Origin: Betaproteobacteria bacterium
Lineage (GTDB): Bacteria > Pseudomonadota > Gammaproteobacteria > Burkholderiales > Casimicrobiaceae
DNA length: 24,000 nt
Assembly: GCA_013298695.1 (NCBI GenBank)
Contig: JAAFIS010000002.1
Location: 68,935-92,934, forward strand
Direction of reading: 5' to 3'
Positions 8,907 to 24,000 of this stretch are shown here, piece after piece. The notes beneath the pieces are model-generated. The model was not told where the DNA came from. It saw nothing but the letters and a program-made list of their open reading frames with translations, and did no database searches. The stretch's first letter is position 1. The number at the start of each line of letters is the position of its first letter. Made by a program: the position numbers and the translations under genes.

Positions 8907-9119
8907 TGTAGGAGCGGCTCTGCTGCGATCGCTTGCGCTCCTCCCCCTTCAAGGGGAAGTTTGGGAGAGGGATGGGTTTCGGTATCGCTCACACCATGGA
9001 AAACCATCTCGACTCTCGCCGTCTTGCAGACCACGCTCGCGCCTGCATGCGCTCCCCGTTTCGGCGGCGGACCACATGCGATCCGAAACCCCGCCTACAC
9101 CCCCTTGAAGGGGAGGGAG
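8907..9119. repeat. Composite REP/MITE-like element: R1 mini-copy (TGTAGGAGCGG...) fused to a long R2 variant
   Basis: tgtaggagcggctctgctgcgat matches the R1 termini at 17659/17759. Next comes hairpin cctccccc-ttcaa-ggggaag. The arms gggtttcggtatcgc (8974-8988) and gcgatccgaaacccc (9078-9092) enclose about 89 nt. The element ends with ccccttgaaggggaggg. Confidence 0.8.
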
Positions 9120-13627: not shown

Positions 13628-13728
13628 CATCCCACCCCTCACGCGGGAGGTTTGGATGGGGATGGGTTTCGATTTAGCTTTTCAATCGACACCCATCCCC
13701 ACCCTAGCCCTCCCCTTGAAGGGGAGGG
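13628..13728. repeat. R2 REP/MITE-like element in the creC-creD spacer
   Basis: ggggatgggtttc...acccatcccc inverted repeat, followed by the perfect palindrome ccctccccttgaaggggaggg (13708-13728). The same modules occur at 8938-9119 and 22640-22744. Confidence 0.8.
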
Positions 13729-13750
13729 AACAGCGTTCGAGGGTTGAACA

Positions 13751-15861: not shown

Positions 15862-16107
15862 TTCGACAAGCTCACCACGAACGGCAGTGGGGGTGAGCGC
15901 AGCCTTTAGTCCCGTGCTTGACACGGGATCACCACGAACGGCAGTGGGGGTGAGCGCAGCCTTTAGTCCGGTGTCCTGAGCACGACGAAGGAACACGGGA
16001 TCACCACGAACGGCAGTGGGGGTGAGCGTAGTCTTTAGTTCCGTGTCCTCAGCACGACGAAGGAACACGGGGTCGCCCTGAGCGGTGACGAGAGACAGCG
16101 GTGCTGA
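15862..16107. repeat. Tandem array of R4 REP-like units between the CsgG-like gene and creB
   Basis: The 41-nt core tcaccacgaacggcagtgggggtgagcgcagcctttagtcc occurs at 15872, 15929 and 16001 (third copy slightly diverged). Each copy is followed by a hairpin: cccgtg/cacggg, or ccgtgtcct...aggaacacgg. The leader ttcgacaagctcaccacgaacgg matches 16975-16997 at 21/23. Confidence 0.85.
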
Positions 16108-16867: not shown

Positions 16868-16920
16868 AATTCCGAGTACGATTGCTGCAATTGTCTCCGT
16901 TCGTGGTGAAGACGTCTATG

Positions 16921-17000
16921 CTGAGTTTGTCGAAGCATCGAACCCTGAACGATCTGTCTAATTTGTGTTCATCCTTCGACAAGCTCAGGACGAACGGGAG
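16921..17000. repeat. R4 REP-like inverted pair in the divergent CsgG-like/GST spacer
   Basis: ctgagtttgtcgaag (16921-16935) pairs with cttcgacaagctcag (16974-16988) at 14/15 complementarity with a 38-nt spacer. It continues as gacgaacgg. Confidence 0.7.
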
Positions 17001-17658: not shown

Positions 17659-17759
17659 TGTAGGAGCGGTTCTTCCGCGATACGACTGCTGCGTTACGCC
17701 AATGGGTCAATGAACGTCGGCGTTTGCATAGGTGGAATCGCGGCAGAGCCGCTCCTACA
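17659..17759. repeat. R1 MITE/REP-like element with 23-bp terminal inverted repeats
   Basis: tgtaggagcggttcttccgcgat ... atcgcggcagagccgctcctaca (21/23 complementary) flank about 55 nt. It begins 10 nt after the GST stop codon. Confidence 0.85.
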
Positions 17760-17966: not shown

Positions 17967-18860
17967 ATGAATTCCGTCGCCGAAAAATCCGCACTACTTC
18001 CCGCGCTCGAACAACCGTATCTCGATCTGCTCGCGCACGTGCGCACGCAAGGTGCGCAGAAGGGCGACCGCACTGGCACGGGCACGCTCTCAACCTTCGG
18101 AGCACAGTTGCGTTTTGATTTGCAACGCGGCTTTCCACTCATCACTACGAAGAAAGTGTTTTGGAAAGCGATCGCCTACGAATTGCTTTGGTTTTTGCGC
18201 GGCGATAGCAACGCGAAATGGCTGCAAGAACGCGGCGTCACCATTTGGGATGAATGGGCGAAGGCTGATGGCGATTTGGGGCCGGTGTATGGCGTGCAAT
18301 GGCGGAGCTGGCCGACCCCCGACGGCGGCCACGTCGATCAAATCGCCGAAGTCGTCAAACAGCTCAAAACCAATCCCAATTCGCGCCGCATCATCGTGTC
18401 CGCCTGGAACGTAAGCGAGCTATCGAAGATGGCGCTGATGCCCTGCCATGCGTTTTTTCAGTTCTACGTTTCTCCCTCTCCGTCCGGGAGAGGTCGCGAC
18501 GAAGTCGCGGGTGAGGGAAATTCGCTGCAAAAAGCAAAGCTCTCCTGCCAACTCTACCAACGCAGCGCCGACCTCTTCCTAGGCGTCCCATTCAACATCG
18601 CAAGCTACGCCCTGCTCACCCACATGCTCGCGCAGCAATGCGATCTCGACGTCGGCGACTTCATCTGGACCGGCGGCGATTGCCACATCTATTCGAACCA
18701 CTTCGAACAAGTCGATCTGCAACTTTCACGTTCACCGCTGCCACCCCCGACACTCAACATCAAACGGAAACCAGCGTCGATCCTCGATTATAAGTATGAG
18801 GATTTTGAGGTGGTGAACTACCAGTCGCATGCGGCGATTAAGGCGCCGGTGGCGGTGTAG
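17967..18860 (+). CDS. thyA: Thymidylate synthase ThyA (carries a 19-aa net insertion)
   Basis: Collinear with E. coli ThyA: [61 protein letters not shown]. 297 aa against 264 aa for the E. coli protein as I recall it. Confidence 0.95.
18471..18520. repeat. R3 palindromic element inside the thyA coding sequence
   Basis: Hairpins cctctcc-gtccg-ggagagg (18475-18493) and cgcgac-gaa-gtcgcg (18495-18509). Inverted tccctc (18473-18478) pairs with gaggga (18513-18518). The same motif set occurs in reverse orientation at 19647-19703. Confidence 0.75.
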
Positions 18861-18868
18861 GCGTTGCA

Positions 18869-19204
18869 GTGGTTGATCTTGACATCAAATCAGTGATAGC
18901 TAGCGTCAAAGAAATTTTGAACGATGCCGAACTGCGATCCGTTGAAATCAAAAATCACGCGGACCTCGGTCACGCTGAAAGCGGTGCCGCATTTTTTATC
19001 GAGGGCACATATTGTCTTACTTCAATTGGTATCTGGCCTCACGGCCTGTGTGATGTCGACTGGCTCTATATGTCGGACGCAAAAGGCGAATTCACTCACA
19101 AAGAATTCTTCGACACAAATGAAGTTGCACCGTTCGTGGCGTCTGAAATTCGAAAAGCGTTTGGACGAGAGCGTATCCAAATGCTTGCATATGGTTTCCA
19201 TTGA
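18869..19204 (+). CDS. Hypothetical 111-aa protein (visibly lower GC than neighbours)
   Basis: GTG start 8 nt after the thyA stop. The composition is non-repetitive. No motif is recognised, and it is not DHFR-like. Confidence 0.55.
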   Translation: MVDLDIKSVIASVKEILNDAELRSVEIKNHADLGHAESGAAFFIEGTYCLTSIGIWPHGLCDVDWLYMSDAKGEFTHKEFFDTNEVAPFVASEIRKAFGRERIQMLAYGFH

Positions 19205-19218
19205 CTGTTGTCCTATTT

Positions 19219-19311
19219 ACCCGGACGCTCGCATCCGGGTTCCTGTGCTCTCCTCGCGAAGCGACTAACCAGACTTCGTCTCATTGTGAAACCTGGATGC
19301 GAGCATCCGGG
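19219..19311. repeat. Pair of R5 REP-like palindromes (CCCGGATGCGAGCATCCGGG type)
   Basis: acccggacgctcgcatccgggt (19219-19240) and cctggatgcgagcatccggg (19292-19311). Each is a 9-bp stem with one mismatch. They lie between the 111-aa ORF stop and the helicase start. Confidence 0.75.
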
Positions 19312-19324
19312 CTACGATTCGGGC

Positions 19325-22015
19325 ATGCGTTTGCCTCGTTCCGAACTTGCTGAATCATTTTTCGCCTCGCGAGGTTGGACGCCGTTCGAATTTCAACGCG
19401 AAACCTGGGCGGCGCAGGCTCAGGGCAAGAGCGGATTGATTCATGCGCCGACGGGGTTTGGTAAGACGTATGCGGCGTTTTGTGGGTTGATTCCCCTCTC
19501 CCCCCGGGACCAGCCGAAGGCGCAGGACGCAGCGAAGCTGTGGTCCCGACCAACGGAAGGGATGGGCGAGAGCCCACAGAGGGTGCCCAAAGGGCGGGTG
19601 AGGGAAAGCGCTGTCGAAAACGAACTCGCTAAACCCGACTTCAAAGCTTCCCTCACCAACGCGCCGCAAGCGTCGCGCGACCTCTCCCGAGGGGAGAGGG
19701 AAGCCAGCACACCCCTCACCGTGCTCTGGATCACCCCGCTAAAAGCCCTAGCGAGCGACACTTTCTTGACGCTCAAAGAGGCCACCGCCGCGATGCAGTC
19801 TTCGTGGACTGTAGGGCTTCGCTCAGGGGATACGTCAACCTCCGAGCGAGCGAAACAGGATCGTCGATTGCCAACTGTGCTGGTGACCACGCCAGAATCG
19901 CTCGCGCTCATGCTGACGAAAGCGGATTGGAGGGAGCGTTTCTCGTCACTTCGCGCCGTGATCGTGGATGAATGGCATGAGTTGCTTTCGTCAAAACGTG
20001 GCGTATTACTTGAACTCACCCTCGCACGCTTACGCAACGCAACGCGCGCGAGCAATGCGCCGTTGATGACCTGGGGCATGAGCGCCACACTCGGCAACCT
20101 TGATGAGGCGATGCGAGTGTTGATCGGCCCCGATGCGGCGATGGAAAAACGCGGCGTGCTCATCAGCGCAGACGTTAAAAAAGACATCGTGATCGATTCG
20201 CTGCTGCCAGATTCGATGGAGCGCTTTCCGTGGGCGGGGCATTTGGGTACGAAGATGGTGCCGAAGGTCATCGAGAAAATTAACGCAGCGAAGAGCACGC
20301 TCATCTTCACCAACACACGTTCGCAAACCGAGCTTTGGTATCAGGCAATTTTGGATGCGGCACCCGAGCTTGCGGGGCAAATCGCATTGCATCATGGCTC
20401 ACTCGACAGAGACACGCGCGACTTCGTTGAACAAGGTATTCGCACGGGCTTACTCAAAGCAGTGGTGTGCACGAGTTCGTTGGATCTGGGTGTTGACTTT
20501 CGCCCCGTAGAACAAGTGCTGCAAATTGGTTCTCCAAAGGGCGTTGCGCGACTGTTGCAGCGCGCGGGGCGCAGCGGGCATCAGCCAGGCGCGAAATCGC
20601 GCGTCACGGTCGTGCCGACGCACGCTCTGGAGCTGGTTGAATCCGCCGCGGCTCGAACGGCCGCGATGGCAGGACGGATTGAAACGCGACGACCACTCGG
20701 AACACTGAATGTGGCGGGGGCAACGAGAGGCACCTGGCGCGCGCTTGACGTGCTCGCGCAACACTTGGTGAGCGCAGCGCTCGGCGGCGGCTTCGATCCC
20801 GATGCGATGCGCGAGGAAGTGGAACGCACAGCAAGCTTCATGAATTTGACCGATGAAGAATGGCAATGGACGCTTGATTTCGTCACCAAAGGCGGCGCGT
20901 CGCTTTCCGCCTATCCTGACTTTCACAAAGTGATTTGGGATGAAGAAACAAAGCGCTATGTTGTGAATGATCGACGCATCGCGCAGCGACATCGCATCAA
21001 CATCGGCACCATCGTTTCCGAAGCGTCGATCAACGTGCAATACCAAGGCGGCGCACGATTGGGGCATGTCGAAGAAGATTTCATCGCACGACTGAATCCT
21101 GGTGATGCATTTATCTTCGCCGGACGTATTGTTGAATTCATCCGCGTTCGCGAGATGACCGCATACGTGAAACGCGCAACGAAGAAGCGCAACCTCGTGC
21201 CGCGTTGGGCGGGTGGCAAGATGCCACTTTCAACGCAGCTTGCAGACGCAACGCGCGCGCTGATCGCCGAGGCGAAACGTGGTGTGTATTCAACGCCAGA
21301 AACACGGCTTTGCGCACCGATTTTCACCCTACAAAACGCGATATCCGCGTTGCCAAGCGAGAAGCAATTCCTGATTGAAACGTACAAGGATCGCGAAGGT
21401 TGGCACCTGTTTTTCTTCCCGTTCGAAGGAAGATTAGTTCATCTTGGACTCGCCACACTCTTTAGCTATCGGCTCGCAAAAGACGAAGCAAAAACGTTTT
21501 CGATTGCGATGAATGATTATGGTTTTGAACTCGTGTCGCCCACGGAACAAATACTAACGAACAAAAAGTTGCACGAACTGCTAGACACGAGAAATGTTGA
21601 AGCAGACATCTTGCACGGGCTCAACGCAGCTGAGCTAGCGAAGCGCCAGTTTCGCGAGATCGCCCGCGTCGCTGGGCTCATCGATCAAGGCTATCCCGGA
21701 CAAAACAAATCGAACAAACAATTGCAAATGAGTAGCGGCCTGCTCTTCGACGTGTTCACCAACTACGACAAAGACAACTTGCTGCTCAAGCAAGCGGTGC
21801 GCGAGGTAATGGAGCGACAGCTTGAAGCCACGCGTTTGCAAGCGGCGTTGCTGCGGCTGCGCGCGAGCGAGGCGCTGCTCAAACATTGTGATCGCTTCAC
21901 ACCGTTTTCATTTCCGCTCATGGTGGAGCGGTTGCGCGAAAAGTTATCGACAGAACAGATTGAAGATCGTGTAGCGCGGATGGTCGCCGAGATTGAAAAA
22001 GCGCAGTTGGCGTGA
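19325..22015 (+). CDS. Ligase-associated-type DEXH-box (Lhr-core-like) DNA damage response helicase
   Basis: Motif I APTGFGKT, Ia LWITPLKALA, II VIVDEWH (DExH), III MSATLGN, VI QRAGRSGH. The C-terminal region (DVLAQHLV..., INIGTIVSE...) is typical of this family. I chose the ATG at 19325 because 19208-19324 is REP sequence. Confidence 0.88.
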   Translation: MRLPRSELAESFFASRGWTPFEFQRETWAAQAQGKSGLIHAPTGFGKTYAAFCGLIPLSPRDQPKAQDAAKLWSRPTEGMGESPQRVPKGRVRESAVENELAKPDFKASLTNAPQASRDLSRGEREASTPLTVLWITPLKALASDTFLTLKEATAAMQSSWTVGLRSGDTSTSERAKQDRRLPTVLVTTPESLALMLTKADWRERFSSLRAVIVDEWHELLSSKRGVLLELTLARLRNATRASNAPLMTWGMSATLGNLDEAMRVLIGPDAAMEKRGVLISADVKKDIVIDSLLPDSMERFPWAGHLGTKMVPKVIEKINAAKSTLIFTNTRSQTELWYQAILDAAPELAGQIALHHGSLDRDTRDFVEQGIRTGLLKAVVCTSSLDLGVDFRPVEQVLQIGSPKGVARLLQRAGRSGHQPGAKSRVTVVPTHALELVESAAARTAAMAGRIETRRPLGTLNVAGATRGTWRALDVLAQHLVSAALGGGFDPDAMREEVERTASFMNLTDEEWQWTLDFVTKGGASLSAYPDFHKVIWDEETKRYVVNDRRIAQRHRINIGTIVSEASINVQYQGGARLGHVEEDFIARLNPGDAFIFAGRIVEFIRVREMTAYVKRATKKRNLVPRWAGGKMPLSTQLADATRALIAEAKRGVYSTPETRLCAPIFTLQNAISALPSEKQFLIETYKDREGWHLFFFPFEGRLVHLGLATLFSYRLAKDEAKTFSIAMNDYGFELVSPTEQILTNKKLHELLDTRNVEADILHGLNAAELAKRQFREIARVAGLIDQGYPGQNKSNKQLQMSSGLLFDVFTNYDKDNLLLKQAVREVMERQLEATRLQAALLRLRASEALLKHCDRFTPFSFPLMVERLREKLSTEQIEDRVARMVAEIEKAQLA
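19491..19607. repeat. Long R3-related element inside the helicase coding sequence
   Basis: It starts ttcccctctcc and ends gggtgagggaaa, the same termini as the thyA copy. Internal 8-bp stem: cgggacca (19505-19512) pairs with tggtcccg (19541-19548). Confidence 0.6.
19647..19703. repeat. Short R3 element (inverted orientation) inside the helicase coding sequence
   Basis: Outer 8-bp stem cttccctc (19647-19654) / gagggaag (19696-19703). Inner hairpin cctctccc-gag-gggagagg. Its reverse complement aligns with the thyA copy (tccctctcc...cgggagaggtcgcg...ggtgagggaa). Confidence 0.75.
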
Positions 22016-22618: not shown

Positions 22619-22744
22619 TGTAGGAGCGCTGCGATTCGTCTCCTCCCCCTTCAAGGGGGAGGCCGGGAGCGGGATGGGTTTCAGCGGCGTTGGAAGCGAG
22701 GGAAACCCATCCCCACCCCAACCCTCCCCTTGAAGGGGAGGGAG
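22619..22744. repeat. Composite R1-mini + R2 element filling the whole glcF-thioesterase spacer
   Basis: tgtaggagcg..., then hairpin cctccccc-ttcaa-gggggagg. Next, gggatgggtttc...gaaacccatccc, and finally the palindrome ccctccccttgaaggggaggg (22722-22742). It ends 2 nt before the glcF stop codon and starts 14 nt from the thioesterase ATG. Confidence 0.85.
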
Positions 22745-23965: not shown

Positions 23966-24000
23966 AGTTGCGCCTAACGCGCGATCGCTAACCCTCTCCC

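Follow-up and report, generated by a model that had tools for sequence, protein, structure and literature searches.

The window analysed here is a stretch of 24,000 nucleotides (nt) of contig JAAFIS010000002.1 (forward strand, positions 68,935 to 92,934), from a member of the Casimicrobiaceae, in which a repeat-derived segment lies in frame within a helicase gene. This gene (19325..22015, + strand) encodes an intact, Lhr-like ligase-associated DNA damage response DEXH-box helicase of 896 amino acids (aa). The frame contains no stop throughout, and its product, 100% identical to a database protein (P0001), scores 1061 bits against the TIGR04121 profile (cut-off 850). The match is interrupted exactly between Walker A and motif Ia and falls into two stretches. 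The helicase motifs are intact, GKT and DEWH being invariant columns of the helicase alignment (A1). Motif I/Walker A (APTGFGKT, residues 41-48; 19445..19468, + strand) includes the invariant G44, G46, K47 and T48, while motif Ia (TPLKALA, residues 137-143; 19733..19753, + strand), which is preceded by a predicted strand at residues 133-136, includes the invariant T137, P138, L139, A141, L142 and A143. The insert occupies positions 19491-19703, between the two motifs and in frame. A previous sequence-only reading of the window had proposed that repeat-derived DNA is read through at this place, and the frame open from 19325 to 22015 bears this out. It had also counted 85 residues from GKT to LWITPLKALA, a figure that stands; from GFGKT to TPLKAL the distance is 88 residues.

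Such a distance is unusual in this family. Among the 120 best homologues, 27 residues separate GxGKT from TPLxAL in almost all proteins below about 62% identity, and the same 27-residue linker is found in 11 sister-clade members with 69-78% identity. The linker measures 25-36 residues in 50 of 52 diverse metagenomic relatives, with two exceptions; this metagenome scan, whose sequences are mostly 44-60% identical and include one insert-bearing locus, was used for the family-wide linker length only. In the alignment with Lhr of M. smegmatis (5V9X), query residues 7-56 and 123-336 correspond to residues 35-84 and 90-304, and about 66 query residues stand against about 5 residues of 5V9X at the linker. 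The AlphaFold2 (AF2) model of the helicase (76-sequence alignment; predicted template modelling score, pTM, 0.81) gives insert residues 61-121 as coil with a predicted local distance difference test score (pLDDT) of 31-53, between a helix (47-53) and the strand at 133-136. The insert is thus modelled as a disordered loop. At the level of sequence comparison, alignment with the TIGR04121 family included, the helicase segment is confirmed as an insertion stretching the motif I-Ia linker from about 27 to 88 residues. This agrees with the sequence-only reading, which had named a generally long linker in orthologues as the observation that would overturn it; the norm is about 27 residues.

The insert consists of two blocks and a spacer. 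The coordinates and termini of the blocks had been given exactly to the base, namely 19491-19607 (ttcccctctcc...gggtgagggaaa) and 19647-19703 (cttccctc...gagggaag), and the perfect 8-bp outer stem cttccctc/gagggaag described for the short block is seen in the sequence. The blocks had been taken for two repeat elements. Both are indeed repeat-derived and in frame, but the arrangement of their sequences indicates that they are the two arms of one inverted doublet, since the same composite of left arm, spacer and right arm is found in intergenic DNA of relatives. It occurs in the glcF-glcE spacer at L001:21056-21164 (folding z = -6.2; L numbers denote loci and P numbers proteins used for comparison). 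In the glcF-glcE spacer of the window itself, for which this doublet of L001 is the orthologous one, the start of a further unit is seen (aaccctctccc, 23990..24000, + strand) before the window end cuts it off. The composite is also intergenic in L033, L021 and L055 and genic in L016, and a doublet is present at L037. The spacers of these copies have unrelated sequences and lengths of 16-45 nt.

The left arm (19491..19607, + strand) is a unit of the BoxC/TM (triplex motif) type described below, with block 1 CCCCTCTCCCC, block 2 divided into GGGA and GAGGG, loop-2 hairpin GTGCCCAAAGGGC and block 3 GGGTGAGGGAAA. Its block 2 is split by a nested insertion of 69 nt, or 23 codons (19510..19578, + strand), delimited by comparison with L003. 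The 117-nt block is therefore no longer type of family member but a normal unit of about 45 nt into which this nested piece has been placed. The spacer, or central loop between the arms (19608..19646, + strand), is unconserved, 27 of 36 columns varying among three orthologues. The right arm (19647..19703, - strand) is the inverted unit and reads CCCTCTCCC-CTC-GGGAGAGG-TCGCGCGACGCTTGCGGCGCG-TT-GGTGAGGGAAG on the minus strand; its assignment rests on its fold, on alignment with the E. coli copies (TMECO) and on its fit to the strict 30-base pattern used for the repeat scan. Chance does not account for the repeat: the window contains two copies of the hairpin core CCTCTCC-N5-GGAGAGG, at 18475 in thyA and at 19681 in the helicase gene, where 100 shuffles give an expectation of 0.00. 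Positions 19676-19701 are complementary at 88% to 18473-18498, and 19482-19509 pairs with 19685-19712. The folding z score is -4.6 for the 226-nt helicase repeat region and -4.0 for the short block alone. In L003 the orthologous insert is shorter (CCTCTCCC-CCT-GGGAGAGG-GTGCCCGAAGGGC-GGGTGAGGGAAA, the spacer, then TTTCCCTCACCC-GCGCTGCGCGCGA-CCTCTCCC-AGG-GGGAGAGG), and this uninterrupted doublet folds as one long hairpin with z = -9.0. The nested piece is missing there; it is 92.5% identical in L001 and is also present in L057, the closest relative compared at the DNA level. It is composed of small hairpins (CGCAGC-GAA-GCTGTG and GGGC-GAGA-GCCC). BLAST against the window and L001-L056 returned only the orthologue, and a 25-mer scan of metagenome contigs gave 0 matches.

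BoxC/PIT/TM repeats have been known since the 1990s and have no agreed function. The unit found here, designated R3, displays in its sequence the three-block design of this intrastrand-triplex motif (CCCTCTCC…GGGAGAGG…GGGTGAGGG), with loop 2 enlarged into a hairpin of its own. Holder et al. (2015, PMC4666352) describe the motif as CCCTCTCCC-loop-GGGAGAGGG-loop-GGGTGAGGG, with loops of 1-6 nt in the ITxF definition and 3-4 nt in E. coli; the earlier names BoxC, and PIT (Hoyne/Maher), are as cited there. The R3 blocks have the composition CCCTCTCC(C), GGGAGAGG(G) and GGGTGAGGG and are identical to those of E. coli TMECO/BoxC (Table 1 of PMC4666352), the differences being confined to the loops. 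TMECO no. 1 can be aligned block for block with the thyA unit presented below, with the right arm in the helicase gene and with the orthologous left arm. Block order is the same, and the likeness extends to the distribution in many phyla (>260 genomes), the lack of a known transposon link, the variability of the loci, which are unusually variable or rearranged between E. coli strains, and the inverted pairs. Pairs make up five sites in E. coli and are observed here at the helicase site, L001:21056, L033, L021, L016, L037 and L055. There are two differences. Loop 1 measures 3-5 nt, but loop 2, which pairs with itself, has 13-25 nt compared with 3-4 nt in E. coli; this exceeds the short loops of the TM motif and leaves a triplex of the long-loop variant only putative; canonical short-loop copies are present in relatives (L002:16193, L004:14893). 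Moreover, whereas the 23 copies of E. coli MG1655 are all intergenic (23/23), three of the four window units belong to the coding sequences of thyA and of the helicase gene, where they are in frame. A triplex was observed in vitro and none was seen in vivo in E. coli, and PIT elements showed no promoter or terminator effect (PMC4666352).

The strict pattern is present in 11 and 6 copies in two related metagenome-assembled genomes (MAGs). It also matches distant phyla because the motif is widely distributed: copies were observed in a Planctomycetota MAG (9 copies), Vampirovibrionales, Anaerolineae, Bradyrhizobium, Microvirga and Ancylobacter (loci L007-L056), with the three blocks constant and the loop-2 hairpin particular to each genome. 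Long open reading frames (ORFs) span the motif in these non-Casimicrobium genomes (Bradyrhizobium, Microvirga, the Planctomycetota MAG and others); they resemble Arg-rich antisense or spurious frames and were left out of the count. Unlike the inverted doublets, the triplex-type unit also forms tandem arrays with a regular period of 120 nt, with at least 6 copies at L053:5227-5989 (Gammaproteobacteria MAG MFD09964) and another array at L015:2177-2579.

The sequence-only reading had called the translations of the blocks REP-type peptides (REP, repetitive extragenic palindrome). Membership of the GTAG/CGTC REPs is rejected, the unit termini being TTCCCTC…GAGGGAA without terminal tag, and the blocks match BoxC/PIT/TM instead. 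The general form of a short imperfect palindrome whose inverted doublet folds as one hairpin is nevertheless that of REPs and of REPINs, the REP doublets mobilised by RAYT transposases. However, the spacers are here unrelated in sequence and length, unlike those of a REPIN that moves as one unit. Neither a Y1-transposase domain nor a RAYT was found among the window proteins scanned, and there is no Rfam family match anywhere in the window. With respect to miniature inverted-repeat transposable elements, the arms act as terminal inverted repeats; comparison of the filled thyA site with the empty site of L003 shows no clear duplication, and the helicase junctions are unreadable for a target-site duplication because ancestral residues have been replaced there. 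A similarity beside the thyA insert, GCAAA(A/C)(A/G)GCAAA, requires a 1-nt frame offset and was not relied on.

The second host gene is thyA (17967..18860, + strand), encoding a thymidylate synthase (TS) of 297 aa (NF002497, 459 bits; E. coli TS 1QQQ over residues 17-297). It carries an in-frame insertion (18471..18527, + strand) in the beta-hairpin turn after the catalytic Cys, 57 nt or 19 codons longer than the empty site and made of a single BoxC/TM-type unit (18471-18521) plus 6 nt. The alignment with E. coli TS is end to end, with a sole gap of 19 residues between FYVAD and GK. The independent insertion of the same family previously reported 1.2 kb upstream of the helicase site is therefore real. 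In L003 the site is empty (FYVANGKLSCQ, with the turn ANGK corresponding to ADGK in E. coli). The AF2 model shows the insert as an extended hairpin loop (residues 170-190, pLDDT 56-67) flanked by strands 160-169 and 191-202. The four-residue turn is filled by an R3 unit in the window and in L004; about 35 related proteins have other families there, or arrays with as many as three units (13-54 aa). Where the window has a single unit in thyA, L057 has a direct tandem of two R3 units (SPPLPLGEVARSAGEGN-SRLPMEDVAQSAGEGK, L057:1634-1807), the second partly degenerate. In a sister clade the turn holds a conserved 25-residue loop (ADPVSARDRARAKEEGLADTLPKPR), unlike the repeats seen here (P0136, P0141, P0159-P0163 among others; L005:8765-8896, L006:5461-5592), which could be an old insertion, domesticated or decayed.

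Motif I and motif Ia lie in one stop-free frame in the window and in six relatives (L001-L005, L057). The insert adds a multiple of three nucleotides and brings no stop into the frame, so that the ribosome would pass through it. The 43 codons upstream of it (FFASRGW…AAFCG, residues 12-54, Walker A included) show a ratio of nonsynonymous to synonymous polymorphism (pN/pS) of 0.02-0.33 among six insert-bearing genomes, and the N- and C-terminal flanks pooled, that is the helicase outside the insert, have a nonsynonymous to synonymous substitution rate ratio (omega) of 0.065-0.09. Purifying selection acts on the codons that flank the insert on either side. Within the insert, omega rises to 1.1-1.8 and aa identity falls to 50-62%, versus 86-88% elsewhere in the helicase, which argues that there is no protein-level constraint on this segment. 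The frame in which the R3 unit is read in thyA is not the one used in the helicase gene, which argues for passive read-through rather than for a peptide module.

At the nucleotide level the pattern is different. Synonymous divergence (dS) is 0.2-0.4 in the insert against 1.0-1.7 in the flanks, or 3-8 times lower. The insert has the same length in three orthologues (window, L057 and L001; 300 nt from GFGKT through TPLKALA), and their differences are concentrated in the hairpin loops and the spacer: 11% of the paired columns vary versus 48% of the unpaired ones (Fisher p = 2e-9), the consensus fold being derived from the same three sequences that were used for the count. In nucleotide sequence, then, the stems are conserved and the spacer is scrambled. 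These data do not distinguish selection on structure from homogenisation by other copies.

The helicase loop has received repeats in other members of the lineage. It contains a palindrome of family A (CCTCCCCTTCAAGGGGAGG…GGGGATGGGG) in L004, other three-block doublets in L002 and L005, and a repeat of VRPELVEG/GSTSSPRT type in P0009; several further repeat types are found there, with slightly different entry residues. In a neighbour-joining tree, 12 of 12 members of the window's clade carry some insert, while the sister clade includes the 11 members with the 27-aa linker and at least 4 separate insert types. As close relatives carry different repeat families at the helicase loop and at the thyA turn, both are recurrent hot spots, and the helicase site is a hot spot of the whole lineage, not an isolated case. 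Other genes are concerned as well: four Casimicrobium-like MAGs contain 20 strict-pattern copies, of which 9 are in frame within Pfam-supported genes, their hosts being the helicase, thyA, an acyl-CoA dehydrogenase (two sites), an ABC-F ATPase and MnmG. A separate observation concerns L036:529-3057 (- strand, JAAFJA010000003.1), where an 843-aa MnmG/GidA ORF includes a complete DUF559 endonuclease-like domain (residues 598-705). This domain is in frame within the MnmG C-terminal helical region and has R3/TM units on either side (about 569-584 and 709-724), as though an entire small gene had been brought into a housekeeping gene between repeats.

The explanation that we regard as highly probable is that the segment is a translated but protein-neutral passenger, an inverted BoxC/TM-type doublet lodged in a permissive surface loop of the helicase. 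The two units would face each other over an unconserved spacer, so that a single strand could fold into one long hairpin. The doublet would have entered the DNA for the surface loop between the helix that follows Walker A and the strand of motif Ia, in an ancestor common to the window, L057, L001 and L003, and the 69-nt piece would have landed in the left arm later. The enzyme would then carry about 61-66 extra residues, disordered and unconstrained as protein, and the insert would be selectively near-neutral for it, while the remaining helicase is under strong purifying selection and presumably functional. The simplest account of the hot spots would be that selection removes insertions elsewhere in these highly conserved enzymes, the documented local instability of such repeats then causing turnover at sites already occupied. 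Active targeting of the helicase and thyA sites is compatible with these observations.

Several points weigh against this explanation, in addition to the shared origin of the fold and the stem count mentioned above. All sequences compared come from MAG or metagenome assemblies. We infer the translation of the insert itself from its sequence. Concerted evolution with other copies, and not selection, could be what keeps dS low in the arms. As the analysis identified neither a transposase nor a target-site duplication nor a donor copy, the term insertion rests on comparative absence and not on a known mechanism. Finally, no member of the window's clade keeps the ancestral 27-aa linker, which makes the number of independent events in this clade uncertain.

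Other explanations have to be weighed against the same data. Stems kept while loops and spacer vary, a dS several-fold below that of the flanks in spite of an omega around 1, a site content that is hypervariable among close relatives and the frequent rearrangement of TM loci between E. coli strains (PMC4666352) would all be expected if a hairpin or triplex in the DNA, or a hairpin in the mRNA, were itself selected, for pausing of replication or translation, for stabilising the transcript or for local instability that generates variation, with the peptide as a by-product. Homogenisation between copies, or the repeat's own needs for propagation, predict the same pattern however, and many close relatives function with an empty site (the 11 proteins with a 27-aa linker; thyA of L003). 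As it also speaks against such a role that no triplex was seen in vivo in E. coli and that PIT elements had no promoter or terminator effect (PMC4666352), and the window's left arm is already broken by the nested piece, we consider it unlikely. That the insert was exapted as a functional part of the helicase, for example as a flexible charged tether or a partner-binding loop, appears more improbable still. The identical 300-nt length retained in three diverged genomes and the excess of intragenic REPs in replication and repair genes (PMC3733652) are in its favour, but it accords poorly with the omega of the insert, with the low-pLDDT coil of the AF2 model, with the unrelated repeats, or nothing, that sister lineages have at the site and with the other frames in which the R3 unit is read elsewhere.

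A split or decaying gene, or expression from a start downstream of the insert, was the other outcome that the sequence-only reading had named as contrary to its proposal. It finds some support in P0012 (L004:10001), P0030 (L005:10001) and P0031, whose called starts are within or just after the insert, with loss of the Walker A segment. The DNA of two of these three loci nevertheless shows a continuous ORF from the conserved N-terminus, which indicates that the starts of these two homologues were mis-called; repeat inserts appear to mislead gene-start prediction. A product starting past the insert would be without Walker A, the 43 upstream codons are under purifying selection, and all insert alleles examined keep the frame free of stops. 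On the strength of the two continuous ORFs and of this selection the split gene or internal restart is rejected, and we give it very little credence. That repeat reads were wrongly joined into the gene, as an artefact of assembly or binning, is scarcely conceivable: the data are all MAG or metagenome sequences and short repeats are hard for assemblers, but orthologous inserts whose junctions are conserved and whose lengths are divisible by three are found in independent NCBI and JGI assemblies (window, L001, L003, L057).

The passenger doublet may be part of a broader process, which we put forward only tentatively and regard as doubtful. In the Casimicrobium lineage, BoxC/TM-type repeats would actively colonise coding DNA, and a colonised loop would become a self-perpetuating hypervariable cassette. 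Repeats of at least 4 families would have entered or rewritten the thyA turn and the helicase linker on many occasions, via targeting of structure-prone DNA or repeat-induced instability and not merely through selective filtering. If this were true, such repeats would naturally generate indel variation in the protein loops of free-living bacteria. The Casimicrobium lineage is free-living and its type species is cultivable.

In-frame palindromic repeats as such are already established, in Rickettsia with the Rickettsia palindromic elements (RPEs) and with the intragenic REPs of GTAG/CGTC type (PMC10969869, PMC3733652). The latter are found in ORFs as single units and dimers encoding about 20-82 aa, in excess in replication and repair genes, and different REPs lie at about one recB site in two Xanthomonas species (Di Nocera et al. 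2013, PMC3733652). The present case resembles them in having units and dimers inside ORFs, repair-gene hosts and different repeats at one site; it differs in that R3 is without the GTAG/CGTC tag, has the three-block triplex design and has no RAYT link shown. RPEs, as reported in the parts of PMC10969869 and PMC3733652 that treat them (Ogata et al. 2000, 2002), are palindromes of about 100-150 bp located in frame in many unrelated housekeeping genes; they are considered to leave the protein fold intact and to appear in the product as additional segments. A palindromic repeat in frame in diverse ORFs is found here too. However, family and host are unrelated, an obligate intracellular bacterium for RPEs and a free-living betaproteobacterium (sludge/soil) here. 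No conserved peptide is observed for R3, at least two forward and two reverse frames being used, and the distinction from RPEs is drawn on this peptide criterion. One loop is moreover reused here by several families across lineages.

Our literature search, which covered a searchable library only, found no report of BoxC/TM-type repeats in coding sequence and no paper on repeats in Casimicrobium. A design described as strictly intergenic in E. coli appears, to judge from the frames, to be routinely read through here in essential or housekeeping enzymes. This provides a second independent natural system, beside Rickettsia, for the way in which selfish or structure-forming repeats create protein insertions, and it marks enzyme loops that tolerate 20-60 extra residues. 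Conserved stems together with an omega around 1 offer a clean test case for separating DNA-level from protein-level constraint inside a coding region. An annotation trap is also exposed, gene callers truncating genes at the insert.

The neighbours of the helicase gene are thyA, a glutathione S-transferase (GST) gene and glcF. Synteny is conserved in close relatives, in the order GST, thyA, a variable stretch, the helicase and then glcF. No ligase is found among the called genes of the syntenic loci, which thus differ from the TIGR04121 neighbourhood with its ATP-dependent ligase and exonuclease genes. The contents of the interval between thyA and the helicase differ in every relative (window 18869-19204, + strand; L001-L006, L057), and the whole interval can therefore be considered a variable region. 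It holds a 111-aa ORF without family in the window (18869-19204, + strand), an RCC1/WD40 protein of about 1000 aa together with DUF465 in L001 and L004, and in L005 and L006 a glyoxalase.

Nearly every intergenic spacer of the window has palindromic repeats of other families (8907-9119, 13635-13730, 15864-16071, 16897-17000, 17659-17759, 19221-19317 and 22620-22744). They include family A, a three-block palindrome (CCCCTTCAAGGGG…GGGATGGG), and a 72-nt tandem repeat in 2-3 copies with a CACCACGAACGG motif. A GTAG-type REP pair (TGTAGGAGCGG…), separate from R3, is located at 17659-17759, and a CCGGATGCGAGC pair lies directly upstream of the helicase start.

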